Source: Podarcis gaigeae
Lineage: Eukaryota
Strand: one strand, 5' to 3'
NCBI GenBank assembly: GCA_964106915.2
Contig: OZ066916.1
Length of the DNA stretch: 64,000 nucleotides
The translations under genes were made by a program, and so were the position numbers. Every line of letters starts with the position of its first letter. Within the stretch, counting starts at the first letter, position 1. Shown here in pieces: positions 17,659 through 62,508 of this stretch. A model generated the notes under the pieces. It saw only the letters and a program-made list of their open reading frames with translations. It was not told where the DNA came from and made no database searches.

Positions 17659-18046
17659 ACCTCACTGCCAAACAGCTCTTACTGTCAGAAAGTTCTTCCT
17701 GATGTTTAGTCGGAATCTCCTTTCTGGCAACTTGAAGCCATGGGTTCGAGTCCTACCCTCCAGAGCAGGAGAAAACAAGCTTGCTCCATCTTCCATGTGA
17801 TAGTCCTTGAGATGTTTGAAGATGGCTATCACATCTCCTCTCTGTCTCCTCTTTTCCAGGCTAAACATACCCAGTTCCTTCAAATGCTCCTCATGAGGCT
17901 GTTTCCAGGCCCTTGAGCATCTTGGTCGCCCTCCTCTGCACACGCTCTAGCTTGTCAACATCCTTCTTAAATTGTGGTGCCCAGAATTGGACACAGTATT
18001 CCAGGTCTGACCAAGGCAGAATACAGTGGTCCTATATATCCCTTGA

Positions 18047-18528
18047 GAAGTAGAGACATCACCTTGCCAACAAAGGTTCGTATAGTTAAAGCTATGGTTT
18101 TCCCAGTACTGATGTATGGAAGTGAGAGCTGGACCATAAAGAAGGCTGATCGCCGAAGAATTGATGCTTTTGAATTATGGTGCTGGAGGAGACTCTTGAG
18201 AGTCCCATGGACTGCAAGAAGATCAAACCTCTCCATACTGAAGGAAATCAGCCCTGAGTGCTCACTGGAAGGACAGAGGCTCCAATACTTTGGCCACCTC
18301 ATGAGAAGAGAAGACTCCCTGGAGAAGACCCTGATGTTGGGAAAGATGGAGGGCACAAGGAGAAGGGGGCGACAGAGGACGAGATGGTTGGATAGTGTTT
18401 TCGAGGTTACCAGCATGAGTTTGACCAAACTGCGGGAGGCAGTGGAGGACAGAGGTGCCTGGCGTTCTCTGGTCCATGGGGTCACGAAGAGTCGGACACG
18501 ACTAAACAACTAAACAAACAAACAAAAA
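18047..18528 (+). mobile_element. RTE-BovB LINE 3' end with 13-bp TSD, inserted in CR1
   Basis: Same BovB C-terminal peptide. TSD atatatcccttga at 18034-18046 and 18529-18541. Confidence 0.93.
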
Positions 18529-26670: not shown

Positions 26671-27240
26671 TTATAGGTGGGAGGGGTCCTGTCACATTCT
26701 GGACGTTCCTCAAATTACCAGAACAGGTATGTGTTGAGAAGATTTATTTTGTGGTCGACTGCGCTAGGTCGCACTTCTCACAGGTGTGAGGAAGCTTTGG
26801 CTTTCCAGATGTGGCTGAACTGCAACTCCCATCTTCCCCATCCATTGACCACGCTTGCTATGGATGATGGGAACTGTAGTTCAAGCAACATCCGGAGGGC
26901 CAATTTTCCCCCAATCCTGCTCCATCAACCTGCTTTCAGGCGGCTTTCCAGACCGAAGACGGAAGATTGTCAAATAAAAGAGAGGGGAGGTAGCGGGGAA
27001 ACATGGAACGCCCTTGATGGAAGTTGGGCTGTTTTTTTTTAATGACACGGTTTTTATACTCTGTTAAAAATATATAAATAAAGAGTCTTCGGGCAGGCAG
27101 TAGTAGCAGGGGGCTCGGTCGGTTTCCGCCTTTTGCGTGGCAACTTCTGGAGCTGCTCAGCCAGACGGCGCTACAAAAAAACAACCCGAGAGCAAGCCCC
27201 ACATGGATGTCAGGGACGCAGAGACATTCCCTTCTGCGTT

Positions 27241-27324
27241 TCACATTCTCTCAGAATTTAAGCGTCCTTGGGCTTCCGTCTGGAATCTGCCATGCATCCA
27301 GCGTCCCCTGGGCGCTACGCCAGC
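27241..27324 (-). CDS. BCL11A: BCL11A exon 5 coding part (terminal exon of L and S isoforms, two frames)
   Basis: Long pyrimidine tract then ttgcAG at 27326-27325. L frame: (C)WRSAQGTLDAWQIPDGSPRTLKF* (TGA 27253-27251) vs human ...RRSTQRAQDVWQFSDGSSRALKF*. S frame: AGVAPRGRWMHGRFQTEAQGRLNSERM* (TGA 27243-27241) vs human ...GVVPRELKMCGSFRMEAREPLSSEKI*. Confidence 0.88.
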   Translation of the reverse strand, partial: AGVAPRGRWMHGRFQTEAQGRLNSERM

Positions 27325-27539
27325 CTGCAAAAGGAAAAGGAAAAGGAAGAAAGGACAGGGGGGCAGAGGGGGGCGGGGAGAAGAAGAAGAAGAAGAAAAA
27401 GGTGTAATATGGACCGAAAGTCAAAATGTTCATGTTCACAAATAAGAGACTGGGTGATTGGCGACTCATCCAAGATAACAGACTCTTATAATATCTAGGC
27501 ATAGCAATCCAGTGGTCCCAATCCAGCACATGCAATTAA

Positions 27540-27541
<2 letters not shown>

Positions 27542-27618
<77 letters not shown>
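27542..27618. repeat. Compound (CT)n(CA)n microsatellite
   Basis: Direct reading. Confidence 0.95.
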
Positions 27619-27621
<3 letters not shown>

Positions 27622-29497
27622 CTGTGGGTGGGAATTCGTGTTTAAGGGGCTGGACATGATTACTTGTGATTGGCCCTCCACATGTGTTTCTGGATCACAT
27701 GTTGCATCAGCTGTTGCACACACAGGTGGACCTCCCTTTGCTGGATTGGAGCCTTTGAATCGAGACCAACACACAGCATACTCATCAAAATAAAAATCAT
27801 AATTAGTCAATGCAAGGTCTTCGTTGAGATGTGAAGGTTGCCATCTGATCCCACGAGGAGGACCTCCCACGGCATGAGATTTAGGCAACTGTCCTTGCGC
27901 CCTCCCAAACTTGGCAGGCTTTGTCAGGAACTCTGGACGTGGATGTCTGATATGAAGAATTCTTTCCGTGTTTTGTGCCTCTTGTGTTCTCTGATCTGAT
28001 GTTCTCCTCTCTCTTCTTTGGACTGGTACCCAACAACACCAGGGTGACGGCTTCGTTCACAGACGCTGCCAAACTCATGACACGGAGCTCAGTGGGCAGT
28101 TGAACACCACTTAAGTATAGGATGGAGGTTCTGGGTTGAAAGGTGGTTATATTATTTGCACTGTGCTGTAATTTTTGTTTTAGGGCTTCCCAATGGCTTT
28201 CTTGAAATGTAAGCAAATAGATGCAAGACGGTGGGGTGAGGGATGGTCTCCAGAGGTCTGCCTGGAGAAAAAGATGGTGGTCGGTAGACCCATGGGGGGC
28301 TAGGAGTTCTCCCTAGGTACACCACACACCCTTTGCAAAACCCAGCAGGGACATTATATCCTTGCTTACAAACCCATTCTTCCCATGATACATCTCCATG
28401 GCCAGAAGAAAGTCATAGCAGAACTCTGGTGTCATCGATTTGCAACATAGGAAGCAGCCCTGACAAAAGCGCAGCATGAACTACTTTCTGGGTTCATGAG
28501 GCTCCTCCTGGCCATTTTTGTTTAGTACGAAGGACTAGATAACTATGGACTAGTTATCACCGAGAGGTCATGACCGGGTGTGAAACCCCCACCCCACCCC
28601 AGTTCCCACACATAGAAATCTAGCATGTTAAGGACAAGCTTGAGGTGTAGCCCTCTTTGACATCCCAGTTTTCTATGTAGATGGAATTCTTTGAGTCAGT
28701 GCAGCTCTGTAGCCCTTGAAAGGGCTAAAGCGTTGTAGCCCTTCGGTGAGAGTTAGTCATGCCTTCTTCTCACATATAATTTCAAGGTCCACCCAAAACC
28801 TGCAGAAGGCCAACAACAAAGGCTTTCCATTTGCAATGGCTTCCCCTTTCGAGGTTCTTTGGCCTCAAGATGTGCAGTGACAATGCTTCTGTTACCTGTC
28901 CCGCCGCCTTGAACCACCTCCCTCCTTTTATTGAGTTTTCTCCCTTTCCCTCACCAGAAATATATATATATATAAACAGGGAAATGTTTCACAGGACCAT
29001 CGGTCAGGCTTGTACAGAATGTTGGCACAGCTTAAGAATACATTACGGTTGCCGTCAGAATCCATTTCAGAAAACTAACAAACAGCGAATGGGCCTCAAT
29101 GGTTCATGCTTTTATAACACCATTAATTTATCACACCGCTGGAAAAATGTCACATTTGGTATTACTGCTTCTTTCAGTTTCTTTTTTGCTTTAGTGTTCT
29201 GGCCACCCTGCACTGTCATCTTAAAAAGTTGTGTTATTATTCTGTTTCCATCCCGCTCGCTTCTTGTTGACTGGCCTCCCTTCTCACCCACCTAATTATG
29301 TTCCAGTTATTCAAGCGGCGCCCTGGAACGTGGCCTGTAAAGAGGTCTGCCTTCCAACCAGGTCACACGCAGGGCTAAAGGTTTCGAACATGAGCCGCTC
29401 TTAAAAGAGATTGAACTTTCCAAACGTTGCCTTGCCATCAACCTCTGTTGCTGCCTCAGCTCCCAGACATGGGCCCTTCTTACCGCCAAAGTAAGAG

Positions 29498-29755
29498 AGA
29501 GAGCCAGTGTGGTGTAGTGGTTAAGAGCGGTAGTCTCGTAATCTGGGGAACCGGGTTCGCGTCTCCGCTCCTCCACATGCAGCTGCTGGGTGACCTTGGG
29601 CCAGTCACACTTCTTTGAAGTCTCTCAGCCCCACTCACCTCACAGAGTGTTTGTTGTGGGGGAGGAAGGGAAAGGAGAATGTTAGCCGCTTTGAGACTCC
29701 TTAAAGGGAGTGAAAGGCGGGATATCAAATCCAAACTCTTCTTCTACTCTTCTTC
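29498..29755 (+). mobile_element. Squam3-type tRNA-derived SINE
   Basis: A-box tggtgtagtgg, CORE-like gggtgaccttgggccagtcac, L2-like 3' end and (CTT)n tail. Confidence 0.85.
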
Positions 29756-31317
29756 AAAGTTCGCCTTTCCCTTTCTTCCCCAAGCCTTCCAACAATTATG
29801 TGGCTCCCACAGTGACCGTCTTTCTCGCCTACGGCATTCCTGCCATCGCACCTCCCTGTATTGTGTTTGGTATGCAAATGTCATTGCAAGCCCAGTCCAA
29901 GGTGAGTCAGAGAGTATGCCTCTCTGAACACCAGTTTCCGTGACTCGCAAATGGTGAGTCTTGCCTATGGACTTCCCAGTTGGTTGGCCAATATGGCAGG
30001 ACTAAATAGGACTGTGGTCTGATCCTGCGGGGCACTCCTGGTGTTCTTAGCTCTTGGAAATGGTCCAGTGTGTCAAGCCGTGGTTGGCATTTTAAAAAAA
30101 AAATGAAAATAAATAATTGTGGCCTGCCCTTTCAGTTTATCAATGCTGTGCAGCTCAATCCCAATGTTGGACCAATGAATAAGCATCAGATTATTTATTC
30201 CCATATGGTGAACAGGAGTGGAAATCTCTCTTGCAACTCAGTAAAGTGGGGGTACCCAACACACTGCCCTCCAAATGTTTCTGGACGCTATCTTCCACAG
30301 ACCCAACAGTATAGCCATTGTTCTGGGATGATGGAAGCTCAAGGGACAGCAACACAGGGGTCCACCCACTTATTCCCTACAGAGGTTCCACCTATGCATC
30401 CTTCTAAGAAGCACCATAGCTGCCTACACCCTTGTATAAGCTAAGGAAGAGGAGCATGGGAAGCTGCCTTATACCAAGTCAACCTCAGCATTGTTGACTC
30501 TTGCTGGAAATGGACCTCTAGGATTCAGTCTGGAGATGTTCTCAGTCCCACCAAGAGATGCTGGGGATTGAACCTGGGCCATGACTGAGCTACAGCCCTT
30601 CCCCAAACTCTTAACTGAATTGTAAGAGAAGGAGTTTGGGTGAGTGTAATGTTATTTCTAGGATTCCTGGGATCTGGCGACATGTCCAGTGATCCTAGAT
30701 GGTTTTCTCAGTATGAAAAACTGAAGATGCCCAGCTATAACGTGATTCGCAGGCATTTGTAAAGCATATTTTGTAGACTTAATTTGCTGGGGTCCCCCCC
30801 CCCGAGATGAAGACAGACGTGGATGGAGTGACATATTTATACTTCACATTCTATACATGTGCAATGTAATGGAAACTTAAATAATGGCTATGATTGTTTT
30901 GTAACCAGATGAACTTTTTTTTTTAAAAAAAAGAGGGGGCGGTGGAAATGAAATTGGAAGTCACTCCCATGGTACAAACAACTCCATAACACCAACACAA
31001 CAGAATGGCATAGAACTCTTTTAATAATGTTTAATGCCTAAAGATCAAATATAATGGCCCAGCCAATCAAAATAATGAGTCTTTGCAGCCACAGGAAGAG
31101 CAGAGACCGAGTTTGTTTGGCGCCACCATCTTGGTTGGAGTAAGCTACTTCCCACCCTCAAATTACTGTCCTCTTTATGTAGTGGAACAACAGAGGCATT
31201 CGTCCTGCCCCTCCATGTTCAGTCTGAGGCAGGTGCTCCATGCTGGGAACCATATCACGTAATTCTTCTCCTTCATACAAAGGGTGAAGGATAATGCAAA
31301 ATTGTCCGCTCCCCCAC

Positions 31318-31558
31318 AAGAAGAAGAAGAGTTTGGATTTGATATCCCGCCTTTCACTCCCTTTAAGGAGTCTCAAAGCGGCTAACATTCTCCTTTCCCT
31401 TCCTCCCCCAGAACAAACACTCTGTGAGGTGAGTGGGGCTGAGAGACTTCAAAGAAGTGTGACTGGCCCAAGGTCACCCAGCAGCTGCATGTGGAGGAGC
31501 GGAGACGCGAACCTGGTTCCCCAGATTACGAGACTACCGCTCTTAACCACTACACCAC
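31318..31558 (-). mobile_element. Squam3-type SINE
   Basis: Reverse complement of the 29498 copy with only 2 mismatches seen. Confidence 0.85.
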
Positions 31559-31819
31559 AACAAGCTTTTGCACTGAGGACTGTCAGGAACTTGGAGTCAG
31601 GGTCCTCTTCTTCAGGAGATGGAGTCGAGGACTCCTAACCAGAAGGAGAAGGGGATGAAGGGGCAGCCCCGGGAAACACTGCTACCATGTGAGCCTGTGG
31701 GGCCAGCAGATGTCCCAGTGAGACCAGAGGCTTCCACACTGTTGGGAGACTACTGGAGAAAGCTGGGTCCCTTTAACTAAAGCAGCACCTCCCAGGTCTA
31801 ACAAGCAAGATGCAATTGC

Positions 31820-31820
<1 letters not shown>

Positions 31821-31855
<35 letters not shown>

Positions 31856-32728
31856 TTATTATTTGTACCCCGCCAATCTGGCTGGGTTTCCCCAGCCACT
31901 CTGGGCGGCTTCCAACAAAGATGAAAAATACACTAAAATGTCACATATTAAAAACTTCCCTGAACAGGGCTGCCTTCAGATGTCTTCTGAATGTCAGGTA
32001 GTTGTTTATCGCTTTGACATCTGATGGGAGGGCGTTCCACAGGGCGGGCGCCACTACCGAGAAGGCCCTCTGCCTGGTTCCCTGTAACTTGGCCTATCGC
32101 AGTGAGGGAACCGCCAGAAGGCCCTCGGAGCTGTACCTCAGTGTCCGGGCAGAACGATAGGGGAGGAGACGTTCCTTCAGATATACTGGACCGAGGCCAT
32201 TTAGGGCTTTAAAGGTCAGCACCAACACTTTGAATTGTGCTCGGAAACGTACTGGGAGCCAATGTAGGTCTTTCAAGACCGGTGTTATATGGTCTCGGCA
32301 GCTGCTCCCAGTCACCAGTCTAGCTGCCGCATTCTCGATTAGTTGTAGTTTCCGGGTCACCTTCAAAGGTAGCCCCACGTAGAGCGCATTGCAGTAGTCC
32401 AAGCGGGAGATAACCAGAGCATGCACCACTCTGGCGAGACAGTCTGCAGGCAGATAGGGTCTCAGCCTGCATACCAGGTGGAGCTGGTAGACAGCTGCCC
32501 TGGACACAGAATTGACCTGCGCCTCCATGGACAGCTACGCACCTGGTCCTTCAGGGGCACAGCTACCCCATTCAGGTCCAGGGAATCCTCCACACCTGCC
32601 CGCCTCCTGTCCCCCAAAAACAGTACTTCTGTCTTGTCAGGATTCAACCTCAATCTGCTATCCGCCATCCATCCTCCAACCGCCTCCAGACACTCACACA
32701 GGACCTTCACCGCCTTCACTGGTTCTGA
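31821..32728 (-). mobile_element. L2 LINE 3' fragment (RT C-terminus, internal deletion)
   Basis: WMADSRLRLNPDKTEVL and VHALVISRLDYCNALYVGLP...ENAAARLV...HITPVLKDLHWLPV. Confidence 0.93.
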
Positions 32729-34325
32729 TTTGGTACGACAGAGGACTCAGTCTTGGCTTGCTTCTTGCTGAAGCAAAACCAGAGCCCTGTGTTTCTGGAG
32801 CAAAGCCTGTACTGCCTTTAAAAAGGGATTGGTGAAACTGTTGATTTTTCTCCATTTCTCTTCTCCCCATTCCCCCTCCAAGTTCAGTTTTCCACATCAA
32901 GTTGCAAATTTGTTTTTGTTTTTACTTTAAAGCCCTCATGGAAATTCATCAGCTTTCTAGTGAGAATTTCCACACAGTTCCCTATGATATATGCACTGCA
33001 TATAAGTCTCCTGTGGCGAGTTAAGAATAGTCTGCAGGTGACCAGACCGGCAAGCATTTTTAAATCAGAACAGGATTTTTTCTTCCCCCATCTCTCCTCC
33101 TTTCTGTGTGCCACAAAATAACTAATATACGTGGGTATGTCTAACTAAATGATTTAAAGACACCTGGAGGCTTATTTGCAAGGTGAAAGCAATAGGGTGG
33201 CAAACTGATCCGAGGATGGGGTATTTTTTAATGGCCCAGTCGTGGTCACCTAGCATCTGAAAACCCCAAAAGGATATGGATGTTCTGCAGAATATCATGT
33301 TTACTAGGCTTTATGTGAACACAAATGATATATGTGTTGCACCCCTTCCTAGTATTCTGGAGGCATCTACATTAGTGGAAGGCTTGCTTCCAAAAAAAAG
33401 CTGGGGGAAGGAAAGTGTCAGGTGGAATGACTCCCCAATTCAGGACCCTCTCAGCTTTTCCCTGGCTTCCTCCCCCTCGGCCATTTCCTGGGGTTTCCAC
33501 ACCAGATTCTGAAACTGTTCAGTGTGCAACACTAATGGCAGGTTGCATTGAAAATCCCTCTCCAAAGTCCCCCCCCCCCCCAATGAAAGGAGGTTTTGAA
33601 TTGTGGCCGGCAAGGACTATACCAGTTGCATTGGCCCGGTGATCTGTCTAGTGCACCATGTGGACTCTAATGTATCTGTGCAAGGAGCAGGCACTATTGC
33701 CACAGGACTTTTCAGGATCGCACGACTTGGCACAGCTCTGAGAAGACCTCTGTAGACGTGCCCTTGATAACAGCCATAACCCACGACCTAAGTGCCTTTT
33801 GCAGCCATGTTGATTTCAAATGGGGATGGAGCTGTAACTTCATTCCTACACTTACCTGGGAGTAAGTACCACTGAACTCAATGGGACTTAGACATGTTTT
33901 GGTCATGCAATGGGCCCAGCTCTGCATTACAGCAGCCAGGTGAAAAAGAGGACAGGACTCCTGCAACTTCTATGGTTGTGCAGAAGAGGGGGATTTAAGC
34001 AGCAGTAGCCTGTTATGCCGACATTTTCTTTTCTACACCCCAAGGGATGCAGGGAGCTGCCTTACCTTGAACCAGAACTTTGATCTATCTAGCTCATTGC
34101 TGCCTACACGGACTGGGTTCTAGGATTCTAGGCAGGGGATATTCCCAGACCTTCGTGGAGATGCTGGGGGATTGAAAATGGGACCTTCTGCACACAAAGG
34201 AGGTGCTATGACCATTCCCCCGGGGGGGAGGGTCCACCTTGCCACCTTACTCTGTTGCTAGTAGAAAAGGGAAGGGACAGGTGATGGAGACAGATATAGT
34301 AATTTAGAAATGAACAGGGGAGTCA

Positions 34326-34563
34326 GAAGAAGAAGAGTTTGGATTCAATATCCCGCTTTATCACTACCCTAAGGAGTCTCAAAGCGGCTAACAACCTCCT
34401 TTCCCTTCCTCCCCCACAACGAACACTCTGTGAGGTGAGGCTGAGAGACTTCAAAGAAGTGTGACTAGCCCAAGGTCACCCAGCAGCTGCATGTGGAGGA
34501 GCGGGGAATCGAACCCGGTTCACCAGATTACGAGTCCACCGCTCTTAACCACTACACCACACT
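34326..34563 (-). mobile_element. Squam3-type SINE (related subfamily)
   Basis: Same structure, with B-box ggttcgattcc and (CTT)n tail. Confidence 0.85.
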
Positions 34564-36199
34564 GTACACAAATACAGGGAGAGGCGTGAAGCGTTTGGAA
34601 AGGTGATAAGAATAAAAAATGGACTGCAAATAAGGGGGAGTAAAGGAAGCTACTTGAGGTAATTCAAAGATTGTGTACAATGAGAAGAACAAGACAGGTG
34701 GGAAGAATCTTCAACTTTGGCTTGAGACATTGTCATAACAGGAGGGAGAAGCATTAGTGAGACGTCCCTTAGAACTAGGATGAAGCAGAAGGTCTGTGGC
34801 AGAAAAGGCAAATTGGTGAGCTTCTCCTCACAAAGAAGATAAACTAAAGCCAGAGATGTGAAGAGAAGCATCCTTTGAGTTGTCCAGATGTGAGAAGAGC
34901 GGAAGCATCAAGAGTGGCTGCCTTTTGGATCCTGTCCAGGGAGGAGAAAAGACAAAGCAGAGCCTACTTTTTAAAAAATTAAAAATAAAATCAAAATGAT
35001 GAGAAGCTGGAGATCTAGGAAGAAGAGAGGTGGAAAGGGTCACAGAAGTTCACCGAGGAGAGAAAGTTGGGGATGGCAGAAGAATTATCTGGACCTGATT
35101 GATGGCTATCTATGAGAATCATGCAGGTAAACTTTATCTTAAAACTATGGTTTCAGCAAAGAAATTGAGAAAGCCAAACTGGAGGGGTGGGGAGTCAAGG
35201 AGAATCGGTAGACAACAAATACATCACTCAAAGCCAGTCTAAACAATGTGTTTGCCATGGGGACTGGTACCTCCTTAGTAAACACCGGCTGTGTAGTGAG
35301 GAGCACAATGCGCGAGCCTGAACTGTTTCGTTCTGGGTGCCTTCAGCCCATGTCAGTGGTGTTTACTGTTGGGGACTTTCACTCTATCAACATGCTGGCC
35401 TGGAGCTGTTCTTAATTTAAACAGTATGTCCTGAGCTCAGGGTGTAAGTGTGGTGAGTGGAACATCCAGGACAGGTCTCACTTGAGTTTAAAAGGGAATG
35501 GAAACATTCCATTATTAGGAATGAGGAGGCCCGTGATATTTCTTAATTGGTTTTAGTGCAAGGTGCCCCCAATCTGTAATCCTCCAGTCCCCACCAGCCT
35601 CCAAAACATGGCCAACGGTCAGTTACGAGGGGAGTCATGCGCAAAAGAAAGGGAGGGACCTGAACCAAAAGAAAGGGGCATCTCAAGAAACTGTTTTCCT
35701 GTATATATAGTAACTGCACAAAAAGCTACACAACCCCTAGGGTGCCTCTGGATGTTACAAACGAGCATCACCAATGAATATTCTTCTGCAGTCAGTTGAC
35801 AATGTTTGAATGTCAAATTTGCAGACTCCAAGGCAGCCCATGCCATCTCCCTCCAGGGATCTTAAGAAGTCATGGCATGCAAGCACTACCAGACGACCGC
35901 AGAAGAAACAGCACAGGCAACGAGAGTGTCTTGTTCACACCATGCAAACTCACTGTCACTCACCTTCACAAGTGCTCTGTGAAATTTATATTTTAGAGGC
36001 AAGGAGCTGGCAATCACCTGCCTAAGACAGTCCAGTGAGTCCATGGCAAATGTAGGCTTTGTTGACCTCTAGCTCAACTCTTTAGCTAGCTAACAGACTA
36101 CAACTGCTTGCGATTTTCGCATGGGCATTTGGTTAGCCACTGTGAGAACAGGATACAGGACTAAGATGGGCCTCATCTGTCTTCTTCCACAAAGAATCA

Positions 36200-36465
36200 G
36201 CAAGGAATGTGGATAATTGTTGGCATCGGTCTGCCTTGGGAGACAATGTAGGAGTGAGTCTTTGGGAGTGGTGTCAAAATGTTGGAAGGTTACAGCAACT
36301 GCTGTGGTTGTAGGGACCGATACAGGAGAGACATGTTTTATTGCATCTGGGGTAGGTGAAGGTGTCCGCTTGTGCTGATGCAGGTGAACCAGGATGTTTC
36401 TTCTCTCTGTGCTCCTCCCAGAGGTCATTCCTATGGACGCATGACCTGATAAAGTCTCCAGGCAC
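36200..36465 (-). mobile_element. RTE-clade LINE 3' end (non-BovB)
   Basis: TFTYPRCNKTCLSCIGPYNHSSCC resembles the RTE terminal CxxC..SRIGLxSH motif. Confidence 0.65.
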
Positions 36466-39400
36466 TCTGGTCATCTGCAAGGGATCCCCACACGGCGGGT
36501 TAAGAGATCGCCCCATAAAGGTCAACCAAATCTGGAGACTGCAAGAGAACAATGAAGAGGAAAGTGGAGGATTTGAAGAAGACAGCAAATTATATAGAAG
36601 CCAGGAAGAAAAGCTAGGAGAATGGGTAGCAGAAAACTGAGAATCCAAAGCCCGTTTGGATACAAGTGTTTTCTACCACAGAGGAATGCCCATCAGGTGG
36701 GCAGGGGCAAATGACATGGAGCATTGATTTTGCTAGGAAGAGACACAAACACTCCCTACTTTTGCCATAGGTTGTTCCACATGAAATTAATATTCCAGTG
36801 GATTTAATATTCAAGTGCATGTTTCATTTTTTTTGGAGGGGGGGAGTTACCATTGGAGAAAAAGAATCCAGAAGTGCAAGAAAAGCACCATAATGGGAGG
36901 GTAAAAGGGCTGGTATGAAATTAAAAGGATAGCTTGAAGAAGGAAGGGGTGGCAGAATGTGTATTACAAAATAGCCATAATAGCGGCTATGTTTTACCTC
37001 CATTGTCGGAGATGGTATGTCTCTGTAGCAATTGTTGGGAATCAGAAGTTGAGAGACTACTGTTGCACTCAGGTACTGAATGTGGGCATCCCATAGGCAC
37101 CTGATTGGCCACTGTGAGAACAGATTGCTGGACCAGGTGGGCCTTTGGTCTGATTGACAAGGGATTTTCTTATGACTTTGAACTGGTTCCACAGCCATTC
37201 CTTCTCTCCAAGACACTGGAGGTGTGCGAGTGATTTCCCCCCCCAGCAGATTCTCAGCACCCTCTTCAAATTATGATCTATTCATGACAGCTAAACTGGA
37301 ATAAAGTGATGTGAATTTTAGTGTCAATATGGCTGATGGGACATTTTGTCCCCAAAAATGATTCCTGGGTTGCTTGCCTTATGAGGGAAGTTTTGATCAG
37401 AATGGGCCAACTTCTGTACATGTCCATGGATTTCCAGAATCATGGCTTCTTGTTATGCATTTCCAGAGGCATGGCTGTGTTAGTCTTGAAATTGCCCCTA
37501 ATCTCCATGCCAGAGCATGTGTTTGCATGCGCAAGGTGCGCAACACTGGCATTGCTGTCTAAAGGATGCCCGGTATCAAGAAAGGCCTCCATCTGTAAGA
37601 CTTAGAGAGCCACTGCCAGTGAAAATAGTGAATAATGGCCTAGGCTAGATGGATTCAGGGAGTAATTCGGGCACTAGGTTCATTCATATACCACTTTTTA
37701 AGATGTGTTCATTTACCTATACATACACCTGTCATTCTCTTATGAGCTAAAATGTTGCAGACCACATGGACTAGAGAAGTAGGTACGGGGAAGAGTAAAC
37801 ATAGCAGAAGTAGCAACGTCATAAACCACAACTACACCTTTCATTGTGGTATCATAATAGAGTGGGCCAGATTCAACAAATGAGTCCCACTAGCAGAAGC
37901 CTGAACAGGGACTTCTGCTAGCACAGTGGAGCTTCCTTGTTCCTCCTGCAGCCCCCGCCCACACCTTAGGCTCTGGGAGGTGGTACTTTCACTAATCATA
38001 GGCAACCATTTCTAGTTCACATGCAATGGAAATCAATGCCCTTCACTTACTATGACATTGTATGTGAAATGTTAGGCAGGCTAGTCTTGTTTCTTTATTA
38101 TTAAATATCGTTGTTGTTGCGCACGAGCTCTACGCAAGCAGGGGCTCCCTCGTTCTATGACATGGTAGTGGCATTGTACATGAAGCTCTCCCAACATTGA
38201 AGAGCTGCATGTCTCAAAAACCTGGAGCAGTGTGAGATGGACCAGATGCTGATAATTTTGAAAGTTATGCCAACCAGCTTGGTGGCCGCACTAGGTTACC
38301 ATGTTGTTTGCCCAGGAAAGGCCATAGCTTAGTGGTAGGGCATCTGCCTCTCAAGCAGAAGGTCCCAGGTTCAATCCCAGGCATCTCCAGGTGAAGTGCA
38401 GAATGTCCCCCACCTGAAATCCCAGAAAGCTTCTGCCAGTCAGTATAGACAGCACTGACCTAGATGGACCAATGGTCCGACTTGGTATAAAACAGCTTCC
38501 CACATTCCTAGTGGAGTTCAATCCTCAGCCAATGGACAACTGAGCGGTGATGTATTAAGGGTCCTCTCCACTTGGATGCGTAACATGAGACCAACCCATG
38601 CAAAAGCATGGGGGTACGGGGGCCGGCGGGAGGGGGAAATATAGTATTTCCTCAGTTACTTAAAACAAGTGATGTATTTTGAAGAGGCGTTGGACAAAAT
38701 AAGGCAACAAAAATGCTACTGAATGAGAACAATGTGACAATTTCTTACAAATCAAAAAGGCAAATGAGAAATAAGCCATTCTGTTACACTAGGAAGAGCA
38801 AGAGACGGTATCACAGAGGTATGTGTTTTTAATAAAGCAAATAGATGCTGCAACATGCAGTATTCGTAAAACTTGACAACATATACAGACCTCTCAGGAG
38901 GAAAAATATATATATATGTAATCAGAACCAGAGTCCAGATATTTAAAGACAATGTATACACAACGTTTTGATAAAACCTATCCATTGTACAGAATATATA
39001 AAAAGAAGAGCAGCTCCCATCCCGGCTTTCGTTCCAACCGGACAAAATGTGAGAAAAGAGGTTGTTTCCCAAGTGGTTGGGCCAAGCTGGGCCTGCTTTT
39101 GGGGGTGCACAGCACAGACATCCCCTATGCGCCCCCAGAGTGCAGGCAGGCGCGCCCACAAGCAGCTTCTGCATTTGCTACGGCCCCGGGTGGCACAACA
39201 GAGATGTTTCCAGTTCACCTGTCACGTTGGGTTTTGAGTTTATTTTAAGGTGGGCGAGGGAGGGGCTCACAGGGAGGGAGTTGCATATTGTTTCCGTTTC
39301 TGAGCTTGTCTGTGATTGTACGCAATGGTGCAGGAAGTGGGGGCTGAGGGGGAGGGCTGGCTGAGAGTCCCTTTTCACAGACGGATATGAATGAATTGGA

Positions 39401-39744
39401 TGTTGTGGCCAATCAGTTCATCTTCCATTCTTAAGAGGGGAAATGGGGGGGGGGGAGGGGACATCCATATGGAAAAGAAAGGTCCCCTCCGCTGAAAAAA
39501 ATAAAATAAAGCAAGATCTTTGCTCTTAATACAAGACACTGTTCCCAGGGGCAAAGCATTTTATTGTGATATAAATAGGGAGCTTTCTGGGTCTTTAGGC
39601 TACTAATACGTACATCAAAATGCCCCCATGAAGAAAACCTCGTGGTCTTCTCTTAAAAGCTGCTTCTCTCGCTGAGGGAAATTTACAGAGTGTGTCAAAT
39701 GAGGACACGCAAAGCTTATGGAATGTACTTTAAGCAGTTTTTTT

Positions 39745-39765
39745 TTTATTTTTTTATTATTTATT
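39745..39765 (-). terminator. Clustered AATAAA poly(A) signals of BCL11A-XL
   Basis: TTTATT on + at 39745-50, 39753-58 and 39760-65, about 20-40 nt before the inferred 3' end. Confidence 0.75.
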
Positions 39766-40714
39766 TTTCAATTAAGGGACAAAATGGGTGAATGAACAGG
39801 GTAATGCAGACAACTGCCCGATTTATAAAAATAAAAAAATAAAAAATAAAACCCCAAAAACACAGACAGTGGTTTTCCCAATAGAACTTAACAAAGACTA
39901 GAACAAAAACCAAAAGAAAAAATACAATAAAGAGCCAGGTTGCCAATGACCTTTGGTCATCTAAATAATAATAATAAAAAAACAATTTTAAAAAAAACAA
40001 AGATCAAATCCAACGCCTCTGTTCTGAACAGAGCGTGTAAGCAATAATAAATAGTGACTTCCATAGTAAAAGATAAAATTTCAAGTTACGACAAACAGCT
40101 TTCATTACAGGAATAGAAAAGGCCCATAATAACAAAATATTTTGCATTGCCATATACAAAAAAGGTTTCGTATCCAGAGGGGCTCCTCTCTCTCTCTCGC
40201 TCTCTCTGTCTCTCTCGCTCTCTCTGTCTCTCTCTTTTTTTTTTATATGCTTTGCATATGAAATCCTTTCCGATCTAAATATATAAAGCACCATTTAATT
40301 TTTTTTTCTTTTTGGCAATGGAAAAAAAAAACCTGCGAAACTTTTTAATTTTTTTTCTTCCTTTCGTTCTAGTTTTTTTTAATTTTTTTTTCTCCTTTTA
40401 CTGCATATGAAGATTTTTATTTTTAAAGATGCTGGAATGTAAAGGGGTAAGAGAAGAAGAAAAAAGGGGACGAAAGAGCACACTACGGAACAAACCAACA
40501 TCATCACCTTGCATTACTGCATACAATATGGCAGCGGAAAGAAAAGTAACCCCCCTTTGATATGTACAACCATCAGCAATGCTCATTAAGTGCGACATTC
40601 AAACAGATTCTTTCTCTCTCTTTTTTTCCTCCCCACGCTCCCTCCCCCCAAAAACAGCCATTATATGGCCTCTTATCTGTACAATGTCACACTTTTTCTT
40701 CTAAAAAAAAAATG

Positions 40715-40842
40715 NNNNNNNNNNNNNNNNNNNNNNNNNNNNNNNNNNNNNNNNNNNNNNNNNNNNNNNNNNNNNNNNNNNNNNNNNNNNNNNNNNNNNN
40801 NNNNNNNNNNNNNNNNNNNNNNNNNNNNNNNNNNNNNNNNNN
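40715..40842. other. N-run (128 nt) in 3'UTR
   Basis: Direct reading. Confidence 0.99.
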
Positions 40843-43603
40843 AAAGGTACAATGATACCTTTTCTTTCTTTTCTTTTTTTTTAAAGAGAAACAAGCAACA
40901 GTTAAAAATACAAGCTTCATTATAAATACTATAGTGCCTACTCTAGGTGAACATTAAATTCAAATACCATTCTAGAAATTACAGAAAAAAGAGACCATAA
41001 ATGTGTTTTTCTTCTTGTTTGTTTGTTTGTTTTCTCTTCTTCTTAGCATAGGAACCAACAGGAGTGTGCATTTTCCTATATTTTAAGTACTATATATTCT
41101 TAACCCTTTCCCCAATGTATTTATTTTACAACCTGAAGAGTTGTGTATATAACCAAGGCATAGGATTTTCCACTACTGGTTTTCAATGAAGAGCAAGTCT
41201 TGTACACCACCAAGACAATGAACCCTAAAATACAAGTTTGTTTTTTTCTCCCCTAAACAAAATGAAGTGTTTTTGTTAAAAAAAAAATCATAACATTTAT
41301 ATTTAAAAAAGTTTTGTACAAAAAAAACCAAACCCATCCTTGCACTGTAGGAGTGAGAGAAATCATTCGATATTTTTTATATAATTGTACGACCTGTTCC
41401 CATTCACAGCGCCGTAACGTTGAGTCCCAGTCATTAAGTCAAGTAAAACGGCAAGCTGGCAGAGTTTCTTATATGCTCATCATGAGATTATGCTCATATA
41501 TATTTTTTAATTTTTTTTCCATTAATCTTGCAATTTTTCCCTTAAAAGTATAGAGACCTGTAAACTGGGAAAATTGTACAGTGCATTTAAATTGTCCTAT
41601 CTGAGCAGTCTTAAAAGGTTTTTTTTTTATACTCAACCTGTGTACCTCTGATTAAAGGGAAAAGAGACATACACAACAGGCAGAGTCAAGTGCTATGTGA
41701 ACATCCAAAGGGGCAGATCCTAGCTTAATCATAAAAACAATGAATCCTTTTCCCATGTCAACACAACGAGCACATAGCATATGGTAAAAAGAAACAAAAT
41801 GAAGTACAACTTTTAGGGAGCACAGACATACTCTCTGCTACTCTTTTTTAAATTATCTTTCTCTCTTCTTTTTCAGAATGTCACACTTCAAGGCAAATCT
41901 TAATAGTTCATAGTTAATCATCATATCAATATTAGCTTATAACCTGTTTCTTAGTTTTAAATGGCAAGCAGTACCACATTGTGCTAATAAATCACTGTAT
42001 GTGTTATTTTTGCTATGCGTTACACTCAGTAAAATATTATTGCCGGACTGTTTTATATGTCTTTCCCCTATATAGAGAGAGAGATCAATAGATTGATATG
42101 CGGTAGGTATGCAAGGTTGTACGTTTCTAATTTGATTGCCAAGTTGACAACCAACTTAATTCGGATATTTACTTATTTTCATTCTTCTTCCTTTTAGGTT
42201 TTGTGTCCTTTTGTGTGCCAGAATCACTAAAAGATATTGGTAAAATCTTTAAAACATGAATTTTCTTCCTAGTGTATTTAATCATCTTTCAAAGCCTTCT
42301 GCACTTTTCACATTCATTTTCTTCTTATTTTTTAATCATCAGAATAATGATCAGAATCTCAAAATTCTGGGCAAAGAGGCGGGGCAAAGAGAGGGAGACA
42401 GGGTACTGGTTGGGTAACAGGATGAGAGAAAAATCATCTGCAATGGTCCCGGGATGTTTTCAACACTCTGGAGGGGAATCAATTTGGGTTGTATTCAACT
42501 AAGTTATACTCAGAGTAAATCCTCTGAAATCAATGCACTTAAATTAGTCTTCTCCATTCTTTTCAACGGAGCTACTCTTAAGTAGGACTAAGACTGGCTA
42601 CAACCTTTGAATTAGGTGACTTTGGGCGGAGGTTAGTTGGAACAGGAGTGCATGGGTAGGATCGAATGATGATTAACTAGGACGTATTGGGTTTCCTTTC
42701 TTAATTATTTGATTTAGGTAGCCACTGTTGTGAGAAATACAATATAGAGTTATCGGCTAGGTCCTAAAGGACTCGTTTACATTGCCCAGTGCGAAAGTTG
42801 AGCTACAAGTTTAGAACAAGTAGGGTTGCCACCAACATGGCTTAAATAGATTCAAGGCACTCGGATTTCCATTTCTTAAACCAAATGATAGTACAAATTT
42901 ACCTTTTTTTCTTTTATGTCCTTATTTTTCAATTAAAGGCCTACTTTTTTCCCTTCCCTCCCCCACCACAAAAACAACTGATACGTTAACATCCTTTTAA
43001 AGACAGAAATTGAGATAACACCGTGGAATACCCTTTTCCCTTTTCAGTGTTATCCATCTGTCCAGAGAGGGTTAATTCAAAGAACATTGCCCCTATACAT
43101 TTCAAAACAAAACTGTACATGATATGTGTCACAGAATGCACGTAGCATGGTTGGTTCTGTTAAAAAATGTTTTCGTTATTCTGATTTTCCTTCCCCCTCT
43201 CTTTTTCCTGGAACATTACAGGAAATGGGTACATAGCTGTCTGAGTTAGTATTTGGGTGGGTGGGTGGGTATTATCATTTTGTTTGCTCAGCAACCAATC
43301 AGGGGACAATTTTTTTAAAAAAACAGCCATAACATACCATACATGCTGTCTAATTTTTTTCAAAAAAATTAACAAACATACACAACATGTAAATTATTGC
43401 ACAAGAGAAAGGCTCAATGTTTGCGTAGTATTGCCCCCAATACAGATCATGCATTCAAATGGTGAAAACAGAAACGAAAAGAGGAAAAAATGAAAAAAAT
43501 AAAAAATGAAAATGAAAACAGGTGTGCTGGTGACTAGCACTTTCTTAATATCATCCTTAGCTTCCATTATTTTACTCACAAGGGACTAGAAAATCTCTAC
43601 ACC

Positions 43604-43647
43604 GGGGTGGGGTGGGGGTGGGGGTGGGGGTGGGGGTGGGGGTGGGG
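43604..43647. repeat. (GGGGTG)n-type G-tract repeat
   Basis: About 7 units of G4-5 separated by single T. Confidence 0.9.
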
Positions 43648-43693
43648 AGTTGGTTGGGGAAAGGGAGGAGAAGGGGGACATGTTAATATACCT

Positions 43694-45736
<2,043 letters not shown>

Positions 45737-48670
45737 TTAATAACCAAATAGCTTCCTTAAGAACGTCTGACAAGACCTGCTGCTGGACCAGACCCAAGAT
45801 CTTTCTAGTCTCCCATCCTGCTTCCCACCATGGCCAATTAGATGCTTCCTGGAAACCCACAAGCTGGGCTTAGAGGCAATAGCCAACTCCAACTGTTGAT
45901 AATCCCCAGGAACTGGCACTCAGTGACAAACTACCTCTGGACATGAAGGTCCCACTTAGCCATCAAGATAGACCTCTCAACTCTGGGATTGTGTCTGATC
46001 CTTTTCTAAAGCCACCCCCAATCATCTGTCAACCAATTTCATTTGATGACCCCCCCCCCAGTTCTAATATTTCATATTTCTACATCATGAATAATTTTAT
46101 AAACCTCTGCTTTATATGCCTGGTATTTGTCGACTCTTTTTACTCTTTCTTGAAAGTCATTCCTTTCCTCAGAAATAAACTTCAGCAATAAGCGCAAACA
46201 CTTTAACACATAAGCAGATACACTCCACATATAGCTAAGGCCTTTATACCAATGCACATTGTGGCCATAATCCTAAGCATAGTTTACTTAAGAGTAAGAC
46301 CCATTGAGCTCAGTGGGGCATACTGCTATGTAGATATGCACTGCTATAATTGTAATCTAAAGCCAGAAGTATCAAGTCTCTGGATCTGGAGTAGTTCTGC
46401 TATGGTCTCATGGGATTAATCTGATCCATTATTGGAGGATCATAGGATACTGTGATCCTAACAGTATTTAACCTATGGGCATTGAATAACATCAAATTTA
46501 GGTACCTCCACTAATTTTTAATGAGATTATTTAAATATACATTTTCTGGTTTACTTCCAAGGAAGTATTTTAGTGCACATGGTTATGGTCTAGTGTTGCA
46601 ATCCTAACCGTACTTATTTCCAAGTAAGTCCTGCTTAAATAAATTATGACAATACATGCCAAAGATAAGGGTGCATATCTCATAGGATCAGAGCCTAAGC
46701 CAATTAATTATATGCCAGTCCTCATTTGGAAGCATGTGATTTTTGTTTTTTGTTTTTTTAAAAACTTATTCTGTAAAAAACCTTGTTTCAAGCTGTCAGC
46801 TGAGAAAATGAAGCCTGAAATATATGATATAGCACAGCCTTTCTTTCTCCAACTGGCTTATGGGTCACCCAAACAAATCTAGATAACCAGATGGCTGGAT
46901 AGCTAGATAAACATGGATTTGGATAACTTGGATCCAACATCTGGCTAAGAAACTAGCTGAATATCCAAATTTAGAGGGGCTAAATAGAAGAAACCTACAG
47001 GAGCCATCTTGCTTTTCTTTAAAATGCTTAACACTGTAAATGTCATTTTGAAATGCAGCTATATATCTGAAATTTGATATATCTATCTACTGTATAAGTA
47101 ACAATTTATTTTAACCAGTATCACATGGTCCTGCTTCCTGCTATACTGATAACAACCATGTGACTGGCCCGTGGTCGGCCAATAAGCAGGCGTGCCTACT
47201 ATTGGGGGCCGAGACCCTTGATCCCCTCAATATTTGTTTTAGGAGGGGTGGGCCCCCTCAATTTTCAGGCAGCCCTATGCGCATGTGATGTCGTACACCG
47301 CAGGTCCAGTGGCCATCTCCTCCAGAGCACTCGGCCTTCCACAATGCGCATGACATCGCACACGCGCAACAGCACTGCGCCCTCCCAATCTTGGGGGCAA
47401 CCTCACATCTCTGGCTGTAGGATCTCAACTTTGCCCTACCCAGTATTAAGTCTACTCTGCTAGCCCACATTGAATCCCTTGGTGTACTGTCATTTAAATA
47501 TCACCTGGCAGAGCTGGCCCAATACATTTAGCAGCCTGAGGCAAGGACGAGATGGTCCTCCCACCTTGCTTTCTGGACTTGCAGTTAACTCTTACTTCAG
47601 CACTGGTGATTGGTCAGCATCCTCCACCACACCTGAGGGCAACACGCTAACATAGGGGGTAGAGGATATCCAATGCCTCACCTCTGTTGCCTGAGGCTGC
47701 TACCTCACTCTGCCAATGGTAGGACTGGCCTGCCAACTAGCGAGTGCTACAACTGGAACTGGGAGGGTGGAAGGTGGTGGTTGTTGTTGTTTGCCATCTA
47801 CTTGTTGAGTCTAGTCCCTTAACAGAAAAGGGCAGTGATGCTTATCCTCTTTAGTTTTCCCTTGCAAATAGTCAGGTAGCCTGGACAATCACCAACAACG
47901 GTTCTTTGTACCCCCTTGGTAGTTGCCCCCTTGGGAATCCCTGGTGCTGTCATTCCCAAGAGCAACTCCACATTTTACACTGCAATTCTGCTACACCTGC
48001 AGCAGACATATATCCATAAATAGCTTGTACAAATATGTTGAGAGCCCTGATGCACGGACACAGAGATGCTTAAGGGCGCCTGCCTGAAGTTCACAGCATT
48101 TATGTGCTCACTGAAGGAAATACTGCTTCTCCCATTAGGAACAGGACTGTCACATTCAGTGCAGTTCTGCCAGGCCAGAGATGAGGAAACCACGAGCCTC
48201 CAGAAATGGTTAAGACTTTAACCCCCATCAACACCAGTCAGTCTTGCCAATGGTTGGGCATGATGGGAAATGCAGTCCAACAAAATGGCGAAGGACTGTG
48301 GTTTGATGGGAGAGGATGTCAAGGTCCCAAGTTCAATCCCCAGGATCCTTACATAAAGGTTCTTTGGAAGCAAGGAAATACCTCTCTATCTATGAGGTTT
48401 TGGGATGGGTGTTGCTGAAGCTAAATGGACCAACTGCCTGACCAGTATAAGGCAGCATCATATGAACTGGAGAGAAAAAAATAAACTGTAAAAGGGATAG
48501 ATCCTTATTGTTCTCTTTCAGTGGTCCGTTTCCACCAAAAACAATGGGGGGCATTGAGAGGACAGCAAAAATTAGCATAAATAAATATCTTGGCAGCTAA
48601 TTGTGACATTAACAAACCATTTTGAAAATGCGGAAACTGCCGAGCTCTTCCTGGGAATGCATGGGGGGGG

Positions 48671-48711
<41 letters not shown>

Positions 48712-49221
48712 GTATTTCTATATACTGTACTAGTCTTTGAACAAGCAAGGCTTACAATGGTATTTGACTGTGTGCTGATCTTCTAGGCTGACCTGTGATT
48801 TACTTTACGGCGGTGTTTATAATCTCACTCAATATAACCCACTTGTGGGCAAATCTTTTTTACAAGATTAGACAGTAGATGCCAAAATTAGGTTTCCAAA
48901 CATATGCCTAATGTACGTGCGGGTAGAGAGGAGGGAGGGAAGTATGAAGTGGATGGGTTTTGAAAGAAAAACGCTGAAGTCCCCCTATCAAGTGATCTTC
49001 ATTGTTCTTGTTTTCCTCCTCACTTCAAAGAAGGAGAAGAAAAAGCTTTATAAGGGGGATTTTCATTATACAATGTGTTGAATAAATGACTTTGGAAAAT
49101 GACAGGCAGGCAGCTTTACAGTTATGTCTACTACGACTCACACAGAGCCCCCCCCCCACCTGCTCGTAGCTTCAGGTTTCTCTATTATTATACATTTAGT
49201 CTGACAATCTGAATTGGGTGA

Positions 49222-49225
<4 letters not shown>

Positions 49226-49263
<38 letters not shown>
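49226..49263. repeat. (AG)n microsatellite
   Basis: Direct reading. Confidence 0.95.
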
Positions 49264-49266
<3 letters not shown>

Positions 49267-50221
49267 TGGAGGGAGGAAGAAAAAGAGAGATTCAGCCATC
49301 TCTGGCAGGTGTTTAACATTTTGGTTGCTTTAAAGGAACCCCTTTGGAATAATATTTAACATTTCATTCTTCTGCCAATGCCAGCTTTTTAATGAACCTT
49401 ACTGTGATGTTTAGCGCAGGGCGCTGAAGATGGCAGCAGATAAATACGTAAATCTTCTGGAAAGAGGAAAACTCAATTGGGCATGCAGATTTCGGAACGC
49501 TTGTTTGTGGGCTTTGGGTGAGGGTCCAGAGAGAACAAAGTGGGGTGGAGAAGGCAACAGGGAAGTCAAAGCAGTTGGCAATGTGGATAGTTCTCATTTC
49601 ATTTTGCTGTTATAAACTAGAAGCTTTTTATAAAAACTGCAGCAAGTGATGCTATCACCCTCTGGTCTGCTTAACAATGCAACACACCCCTGCTTTGCTA
49701 GTTTATGTATTAGGTCAGTGGAAATAGCACTGTATCTTATAATGAGGATACAACATAACAGTTTTTGTAATTGCATTTTAGCATTCCCATCAACTAGATA
49801 TTCTGGATCAGAAGGGCAGCTGGTATAATCATAATGTCAATGAGAAAGGCTGTTACGGCAGAGAGTAAAAATTACATGGAGGGGGAGCAGCTTTGAAACT
49901 GGTAATTATTACCAGTCCACTAATAGCAAATGATGCATTGCAGTTTCACCATATAATCTGTATTTCATTCAGCTTCTTGTTGGGGCAGCAGATTATATTA
50001 CAGCGCTCACAATGCCAAAATTTCTAACCTACAGTCATCAATAAAAGCCTTACGTCCCATAATTTGGTAAATGACTTTCTTCATAACATCTTCAACTGTT
50101 GTAAAGGCTAGTATCGATTTCTTACATGGGGGGGGGGGGAAGGCTTCATTTATTTACTGGAGTATAAAATGTAATATTTTTCTTCATTTGCTCAGATGAA
50201 AAACAAGTTTCCACTTTTACC

Positions 50222-50361
50222 NNNNNNNNNNNNNNNNNNNNNNNNNNNNNNNNNNNNNNNNNNNNNNNNNNNNNNNNNNNNNNNNNNNNNNNNNNNNNNN
50301 NNNNNNNNNNNNNNNNNNNNNNNNNNNNNNNNNNNNNNNNNNNNNNNNNNNNNNNNNNNNN
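50222..50361. other. N-run (140 nt) in intron
   Basis: Direct reading. Confidence 0.99.
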
Positions 50362-53300
50362 TTAAAATCCATGAGTGATTTACCTCCTGCTTTGAAGAAA
50401 CACAATTTCTAATTTGTCTATTAGTACTTGATTAATTATGAAAGCTATTGACTGACCATTTTACCTCCTGGAGATGTTTTAACAGTCGATGCAAGATTGC
50501 TGATGCTTTAAGGATTGGAAGGAGGGGTCCAACTAGGAAGGGCAAATTTAACAATAAGTGAGCGAGCTTTTGCTCAGGACAACGCAAAGCAGCAATATTT
50601 TGTTTGTAGCATGGACACCATCCAAATTCAACCCTTCATACAATAGATACCCTTTCCCAGCTGTTTTTTTCCTCCGCCTGTGGGCAATGTACAAAGTGAC
50701 TATACAACTTAGAGTCTCCCCATTTCCCTCCCCTCTCCCCATGAACTTGTGGCGTCAGCTTACTGCAATGGCATGAGGGTCCCTCCCCAACCCACAAGCC
50801 ATGCAACAGAAAAGGTTGTGTGGCTGTTTCCTAAACCCCCTAGTTTAGGAAGAGGATTGGACCTATTTACGGAAGATAAAGCTATGACCACGATGGCGAA
50901 GTTCTACCTCCACTGCGGGAGGCAGTATGCTTCTGAATATGGGCTGGGAATCACAAACAGGAAGAGGGTTGCTGCACTCAGGCAGTATCAAAATTTGCGA
51001 ATATGTGGACCCAATCTGGGACTCTCTTGCATTTAGCAGGTCCTGCCCCCATACCTTGTTACTCAGGGTAGAGATGCTCCTGAAAGCCTAGGTAGGAGAG
51101 CATGCACACTTAGGTACATCATGTGTCTGTCCCTCCCTTCCTCCCACATTCCTCCTCTCTTCAATGTCTTCATCTGCTTGCAACCATCTGGGCATAAAAC
51201 TGCAAACAAAGGCCTACACAAAGGCTGCTCCAAGAGAGGATTTGGGAGAAGAACCCTAGGGGGTTGCAAGACTAGAAACCTGCCCATGTCCTCCCTCCTT
51301 CTGCTTCTGAATCACAAACAAACTCAAATGCAACAGCCTCAGTTTAAGGGATGTTGATCCCTTAACCATGTTGACCAGAGACATGGCTCTGCATACTTCA
51401 TTGTTGCATGGAAGTGCAGGGGAAAAAAGATAGATTGTGGTAAGCGGACATACGAATCAGCAGCCCAAGCACCTCAGCTTTCAAAAAACCCAAACATTTA
51501 TTTATTTTTTGTCCCTCAAAGCTGGGAAGATGAGCCTTGAAAAGTGACACCCCAAAATTCCCTTTGGAAATGCCAATGGAATTCCCTTCTAAGAAGGAGC
51601 TCTGCAGAGTCCCTATGCAGCCATGGTACCCAGAAATGTGGAGTGCATCAAACTGCACTGTCCTGGTCACCACATGGATTTATATGGTCTCCACATAAAG
51701 TTTGCAGCATATGGCTGAATTGCATGGATAATACAAGACTGTATCAGAACAAATAAGTTTCCATAAGATATTTCCCATGCACCTGACCAGGCATTAATGT
51801 TCTCAAATCATGAGTGCAAGAAGAAACCGGTTTCAAGCTAACTCTCAAGACACCTGTGTCCAGTGCTGTCCATTGTCACTCTGCACAAGCACAGTATTGG
51901 GGACTGTGTCTTGAATTCAGCACTAGGAGGTTTCTAGTCCAGGAAACTTTGGAAGAAAAGCTTGAGATTCTGTGGGAATCTAGATGTCCCAAAGACTGGG
52001 CCTCTAATACATTTTGAAATGCTTGATATCTCCTGCAGTAGTTAGAAAGGGGAGGGGGACAATAAACTAGGGTAAAATGCAAATATATGAAAATTTACCT
52101 GCTTTGAATAATTAATGCAGAGTTCAGTTTTTCTTTGTGCAATGTTTGAATTACCCTGGCACAGATTTTTTTTATTAATTTCTAGCGCAAAGGCGTGTGC
52201 AGATCTGGCAAAATCCCATGCTACGTTCCCCTTCAGCCACAAGTGCCACGGCACAGTTTCTCTCAGCATATGAAAATTAAGCAATGGATTACTGCTAGGC
52301 AAGGGCTGGAGTGGACCCAGGCCAGGCATGGCAGAGGAGGCCTCTGTTTAGTAAATCATACTAATCCAGCCAATCTGGAGCGCTGCTTTGCCAAGACTCG
52401 AGGCAGACCCTTAACGCTGTCCAAGGATGGAACTTTCCCTAACCTGCCTCAAAACTGTCATCAGGATTGTCTGTAGCTTATGAAGGAAGCATTTTAAAGT
52501 CTGTGAAACCTTGTTTCACATTTCAACACTGAGGGATCCTTAATACTGTATGCAGTTTTAGGATGGGGGGATGTTGCATGTCAGTAGGATTTTGTCCTGT
52601 CTCCTAATGTAGCTAGTCAGGTTGTTCGGAGAAGCTCACAAACAGGGCCTGAAGGGAACAGTTCTATCCTAGTGCTCCTCCAGACATCCTTTTTATTACG
52701 CATTCAATATGATTTGTGTTTGTGATACTATCACTTGTCCTATGCAAGCCCACTTCCAATACATTTTGTGCCTACCAAAGTTTTGGGGTGGCTTCAATTC
52801 CAATTGATGCACATCTTGTAATTTCATGCTGAAATCCAGTAACTTTTCATACCACAAATATTCAGGGTGGGTGGGTTGCCCCACTTTTGTTGTGCTATAG
52901 CCCCACTGAACATCAATAATAAGATAGTATTGGAGAACAATACTGTACCTGTGTGCCTAAGATAATACTTTTAACGAAATGGGAATCTCCCCCTGCAGAT
53001 TTTTTTTATAGCATAATCACTGGGAAAACCACCTTAACATTCAGTGCCAAATAAGGACATTTACCTTCTATCCAAAATGGACCCCGTTTTTACAATCTGA
53101 AACACTGATGGGCTCTGAAAATGCTTAATTCACTAGTGAAGAAGGAAGACTGCTTTTGAGCATCTGTAGAGCATCTTCCTCTCACCAAAGATAATGATAA
53201 AAATTAAGGGACAGTCCATTTAAAGGATGTGAACATCAAGTGGAGTAAGCACATCTAATTTTTAGTAAGCAATATTTGCTTTTAACGGGTTCCATTGAGA

Positions 53301-56214: not shown

Positions 56215-56456
56215 CAGTGGTACCTTGGGTTACATACGCTTCAGGTTACATACACTTCAGGTTACACACTCCGCTAACCCAGAAATAGTGCTTCAGGTTA
56301 AGAACTTTGCTTCAGGATAAAAACAGAAATCGGGCTCTGGCGGCGTGGCCGCAGCAGGAGACCCCATTAGCTAAAGTGGTGCTTCAGGTTAAGAACAGTT
56401 TCAGGTTAAGAACAGACCTCCGGAACGTATTAAGTACTTAACCTGAGGTACCACTG
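56215..56456. mobile_element. Tc1/mariner-type MITE
   Basis: TIRs CAGTGGTACC...GGTACCACTG flanked by TA on both sides. Confidence 0.88.
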
Positions 56457-62497: not shown

Positions 62498-62508
62498 TAA
62501 TAGTAGTA

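Follow-up and report, generated by a model that had tools for sequence, protein, structure and literature searches.

The closest described counterpart of the locus studied here is BCL11A of human and mouse, which gives rise to a 773-residue isoform, BCL11A-L, and a 243-residue isoform, BCL11A-S (PMC1526750, PMC12006351, PMC7158892). The human L/S overlap has been catalogued as dual-coding region 608 without nonsense-mediated decay and is absent from the tissue-specific rows of Table S2 (PMC13160074). More generally, Tress et al. describe 105 dual-coding regions selected in both frames, at least 53 of which are older than the jawed vertebrates (10.64898/2026.05.28.727796), and dual-coding last exons derived from splicing are common as a class. 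The BCL11A case likewise combines a splicing-shifted terminal exon with two C-termini in a brain-expressed gene, but it looks amniote-aged and hence younger than the oldest of those regions. BCL11 has 0 occurrences in the main text of that preprint, whose supplements may list the gene. The open-access literature, to which our search was confined, yielded no paper on the evolution of BCL11A isoforms in reptiles.

Here, we analyze a 64,000-nt stretch of DNA from the lizard Podarcis gaigeae (contig OZ066916.1; this whole stretch is called the window below), in which an original prediction had placed a dual-frame last exon of BCL11A. With a probability of roughly three in four, we regard the segment at 27241..27324 as orthologous, in a squamate, to the last exon that BCL11A-L and -S have in common, served by a composite exon 4 whose switch would give the isoforms XL, L, and S. 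Orthology is argued from tail homology in both frames, an exon 4 of BCL11A type, and matching donors. The exon itself is real, old, and already known, i.e., it is the reptile copy of the known two-frame last exon of BCL11A. Its discovery value is small given that the mammalian isoforms are textbook knowledge, the human overlap is catalogued, and squamate and bird models stand in RefSeq, while its comparative value, which lies in placing the origin of the XL/L/S switch in the amniote ancestor or earlier, is modest.

The identity of the host gene was judged from searches with two regions of exon 4, which are up to 98% identical to BCL11A compared to 83-86% for BCL11B; by this measure of sequence identity, the host gene is BCL11A and not BCL11B. 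The exon 4 coding region in the XL frame spans 43694..45696 on the minus strand, from an acceptor at 45696 to the XL stop at 43696-43694, and encodes C2H2 zinc fingers (ZFs) that are found by Pfam. A run of 148 N at 43714-43861 conceals part of ZF5-6 on this strand and leaves the XL frame in register. Other N runs of 128-143 nt each lie at 8020, 40715, and 50222. Beyond the XL stop, an AT-rich stretch of ca. 4 kb inside the L/S intron (39750..43693, minus strand) is the probable XL 3' UTR, at the end of which three copies of AATAAA (39765-39750) are candidates for the XL poly(A) end.

Within the exon 4 coding sequence, the two donors that had been predicted are intact GT sites. The phase-0 S donor (45546..45556, minus strand; last exon base 45554) lies in-frame after ZF1, and the phase-1 L donor (43964..43974, minus strand; last exon base 43972) interrupts the first Cys codon of ZF4; both sit at the same exon 4 codons where annotated S and L proteins leave this exon, and their positions support the claim that the switch removes ZF4-6 in L or ZF2-6 in S. 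In a simple count of U1 pairing, the S donor ranks first and the L donor joint second among the 77 GT sites of readable exon 4. While both donors thus exist, the list of two is incomplete because owl and gundi models join a third donor, located after ZF5, to the last exon; the place of this donor in the window falls beneath the N run in exon 4. Separately, models of Pogona, Candoia, and Ahaetulla splice the S donor to an exon 4-internal acceptor (about 44139 in the window, minus strand), which in these models opens a shifted frame of about 56 codons that leads to the L donor. This shifted frame is also open in the window (ORF 43705-44193), but the AG of the inner acceptor is absent.

The last exon, labelled "exon 5", follows exon 4 and its XL stop on the same strand, where a canonical acceptor precedes it. 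ORF reading and tblastn place its coding part common to BCL11A-L and -S at 27241..27324 (minus strand), with 27324 as the first exon base and the acceptor AG at 27326-27325. The 3' splice site with its long pyrimidine tract occupies 27325..27450 (minus strand), the next AG upstream being 127 nt off, and introns ending there would be 18,229 nt long from the S donor and 16,647 nt from the L donor. The S frame (phase 0) runs for 27 codons before its stop at 27243-27241. The L frame (phase 1; 27251..27324, minus strand) uses two bases to finish the split Cys codon and continues with 23 codons from 27322 to a stop at 27253-27251, such that the S frame terminates 10 nt beyond the L stop; the third frame is closed at codon 3. 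Behind the two stops, the first part of the 3' UTR (26956..27240, minus strand) is spanned by contigs of related organisms, in which indels appear shortly past the stops, and candidate poly(A) hexamers occur at 27043, 26748, and 26670. The coordinates originally given for the exon, its frames, and the donors were correct, with only the minus strand left unstated.

Two open frames in themselves were discarded as evidence for an exon at this position, since 49 of the 380 YAG sites at 27400-40000 in the intron precede two frames just as long, and it is therefore homology that sets the segment above chance. The check proposed for it, i.e., tblastn of the S tails (including human isoform 13) and L tails (gundi and blue tit) against the 64-kb window, returned the last exon as the best match for all seven queries. 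E values for the S tails were 0.003 (human isoform 13), 0.002 (platypus), 3e-5 (a passerine), 5e-7 (Pogona), and 7e-8 (Ahaetulla), and those for the L tails 1e-4 (gundi) and 2e-8 (blue tit), while the next-best matches of these queries in the window reached 0.12 or worse. All matches were ungapped, with the last residue reached in six of seven, and fell in the expected frames with the stop in register (5/5 S queries in the S frame, 2/2 L queries in the L frame), which bears out that both overlapping frames are open with stops at human-equivalent positions. Neither tail had a match in Pfam.

Tail identities to the window are 17/27 (Pogona), 18/27 (Ahaetulla), and 12/27 (human isoform 13) for S. 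For L, where the comparison set comprised gundi, blue tit, and a mammal-type ORF (P0304), they are 12/23, 16/23, and 13/23, respectively, with 12 invariant columns in an alignment of three rows. Protein searches for further L tails were less productive. The L frame alone gave 13 candidates of which none scored, and a search with the end of exon 4 gave no squamate L among the matches listed, 120 of 381 of which were BCL11B. A profile of the L tail retrieved seven matches, namely three unrelated ones and four genuine tails of the kind found in mammals or birds, with none from squamates, amphibians, or fish; these absences say little about age because larger clusters can conceal short tails. The case for a squamate L frame draws on DNA sequences from three related taxa, and the S tails of Pogona and snakes are compatible with an open L frame.

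The exon had also been expected to escape automated annotation easily, which turned out differently: RefSeq models, which are predictions, carry it in Pogona, three snakes (Ahaetulla, Pantherophis, and Candoia), many birds, and platypus. Models with S-frame tails extend across platypus, marsupials, placentals, many birds, Pogona vitticeps (XP_072843107.1, 203 aa), and the three snakes, and annotations of the L frame exist for gundi and for blue tit (XP_023778863.1). Pogona, Ahaetulla prasina (XP_058020852.1 and XP_058020851.1), and Candoia aspera (XP_063157241.1) share the exon, S frame, stop, and short acceptor of the window. The S donor is spliced to this same short acceptor in Pogona model X5 and Ahaetulla model X7, whereas the L donor is joined to the last exon in Ahaetulla X6 and Candoia X4 after the inner exon 4 intron and hence in the S frame. 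Birds have both frames annotated as here (blue tit for L; many 209-aa models such as Anas acuta XP_068531443.1 for S), though with a long acceptor and an L tail closer to mammals than that of the lizard. The claim that the XL/L/S switch predates the split of mammals and reptiles is supported by this distribution, which includes S tails in monotremes, marsupials, placentals, birds, and squamates as well as L tails from one rodent and one bird. Short models of fish and frog end in unrelated tails.

Compared to human and mouse BCL11A, the window has the same two exon 4 donors, two-frame last exon, stop register, and removed fingers, but its tails are 44-57% identical and its last exon starts 18 nt later. 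The coding part of the exon thus measures 84 nt rather than the 102 nt of mammals and birds, being shortened at the 5' end, and the S tail has 27 instead of 33 residues, while a shift by 18 nt preserves both frames. Among squamates, the short acceptor occurs in the window, Pogona, Ahaetulla, and Candoia, and the long one (+18 nt; window 27325-27345; P0183, P0184, P0188, P0210) in Pantherophis guttatus (XP_060548596.1), which otherwise has the same exon, S frame, and stop but resembles birds and mammals in this respect. No AG is possible at the codon boundary of the short start in Pantherophis because the preceding residue is Pro, and the resulting split among squamates is not parsimonious. The L tail of the window has drifted, with 10 of its last 15 residues identical to the bird where the mammal-type tail matches it at 15 of 15, and the S tail of Pogona rules out an L-frame Asp that is otherwise invariant. 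In a model of the ibis Theristicus caerulescens (KAM6085623.1, P0191), the tail begins in the S frame and ends in the L frame, which points to either an assembly error or a frameshift close to a run of C. The drifted L tail, the Pogona tail, and this ibis model speak against the preferred reading.

Such divergence raises the question of whether the exon, though real by descent, is decaying in the lizard lineage with one or both junctions rarely used and selection on the tails relaxed, as the drifted L tail and the missing AG at the ancestral acceptor 18 nt upstream might suggest. We regard this as very improbable. Both frames survived the acceptor shift, whose length is divisible by three, the short form recurs in Pogona and two snakes, and the two donors still lead exon 4 in their match to U1, though the XL protein constrains them too. 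Data from related organisms point the same way. Of 23 sequencing runs identified, none is recorded as RNA and 17 are presumed to be RNA. Four of the 23 were compared with 26950-27530, the pyrimidine tract at the acceptor being skipped as a repeat; three gave one contig each, and contigs from two related organisms cover 26956-27321, ending with 5 and 13 letters left over, while none covers 27408-27530. Both contigs are free of indels across the coding part (27241-27321), whereas 5 and 2 indels distinguish these two relatives from the window over the neighbouring 285 nt of UTR. They differ from the window by 2 and 1 substitutions in the coding part (27281 in both; 27278 in one contig of depth <5), all three of which are silent in L and alter S.

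This last pattern bears on another explanation, according to which the L peptide alone is selected and the S frame is a passenger for which any short open frame that ends within the last exon would suffice, with its residues dictated by L. The geometry of the overlap is informative in this regard because S codon position 2 is the L wobble position, the S wobble is L position 1, and a change at S position 1 affects both frames. We counted residue changes in 36 distinct S tails (35 retrieved ones and the window) over columns 2-24, leaving out columns 1 and 25-27 outside the full overlap as well as a Rattus rattus tail that has a gap of two residues. With states counted once per column rather than on a tree, single-step residue changes in the S frame fell 22 times at position 2, 6 times at position 1, and 2 times at position 3, with 3 ambiguous cases. 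Single-frame controls differ from this ratio (125:175 for BCL11A exon 4 in 25 rows, Fisher p 2e-4; 203:240 for BCL11B in 110 rows, p 8e-4). Since residue changes in S concentrate at L wobble sites (22 vs 6), the L peptide is clearly under purifying selection, and the substitution pattern singles out the L tail as the probable selected peptide.

A passenger S frame would account for this concentration at L wobble sites and for the substitutions in the relatives that alter S but spare L. It is also supported by the low abundance of S in mouse brain (PMC4974071) and with the fact that random synonymous L codons leave the S frame open in 22-42% of draws, so that a single open frame proves little. 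We nonetheless consider it unlikely. L imposes nothing on an S stop located 10 nt past its own, yet 96 of the 98 retrieved tails that combine the S donor with this exon end there, a count over redundant rows drawn from annotated isoforms in which species without S may be under-counted; the two exceptions are one read-through and the ibis model that changes frame within the exon. Similarly, the L-frame Leu before Lys-Phe (column 22) is encoded in 36 of 36 tails by the only codon class that does not create an S stop. In four lineages for which both frames could be solved, variable sites make up 2 of 24 positions coding in both frames, 13 of 24 L wobble positions, and 10 of 24 S wobble positions. 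The fivefold excess at S-silent over doubly coding sites has a raw p of 0.017, which becomes 0.067 against the ratio of the single-frame control. The S frame is thus kept open with a fixed end, while selection on its residues is suggestive only. Of the claim that the exon is constrained in two frames, the L half therefore stands clearly (p 2e-4); for S, the preserved open frame and stop stand, and selection on residues is no more than suggested (p about 0.07). Frames and stops together are preserved in 96 of 98 tails for S and in rodent, bird, window, and the two relatives for L, with few squamates sampled and the ibis model discordant.

On the preferred reading of a squamate orthologue with an XL/L/S switch, exon 4 would act as a composite exon. 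If neither inner donor is used, transcripts would continue to the stop of exon 4 itself and be polyadenylated ca. 4 kb downstream, which would yield XL and its complete set of zinc fingers. This end would have to compete with splicing that connects an inner donor to 27324. Use of the donor at 43972 would put a 23-residue tail in place of ZF4-6 (L), and use of that at 45554 a 27-residue tail in the other frame in place of ZF2-6 (S). With the N-terminus of Pogona, the products would have lengths of 203, 727, and 795 residues, provided that the length of the N run is true. Neither the L nor the S product should trigger nonsense-mediated decay because both stops lie in the last exon. Going by mammalian papers, the switch would tune the DNA binding of an oligomeric repressor, with XL carrying both finger arrays, L only the weak array, and S none while still able to oligomerise. 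For P. gaigeae, we infer the use of the junctions and poly(A) sites, and likewise that the lizard proteins would act like their mammalian counterparts.

A further, tentative idea that we hold to be possible but rather doubtful is that the L tail functions as a short motif, rather than being filler behind a truncation, and characterizes BCL11A-L in neurons, e.g., by binding a partner or by signalling stability from the C-terminus. The lizard retains the Asp, Trp-Gln, Asp-Gly, Arg, and terminal Leu-Lys-Phe of this tail. Binding of TBR1 requires L residues 629-773, a requirement that is not mapped to the tail itself (PMC6155134). If the idea were true, the 18-nt acceptor shift with both frames kept would amount to a deletion experiment by nature, showing which part is dispensable, and the conserved L tail as a possible motif is the lead worth keeping.

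Beyond the last exon, the window also differs from human and mouse BCL11A in lacking any trace of the mammalian 34-residue exon 3 within the 18 kb upstream of exon 4 (45697-64000). The corresponding protein block is absent from all 29 named non-mammal rows that were checked, and exon 3 may be specific to mammals. Elsewhere in the window, ORFs at 2067-2549, 17971-18513, 32094-32534, and 62771-63298 resemble fragments of retrotransposons, presumably RTE/BovB-like and L2-like, in keeping with a squamate genome.
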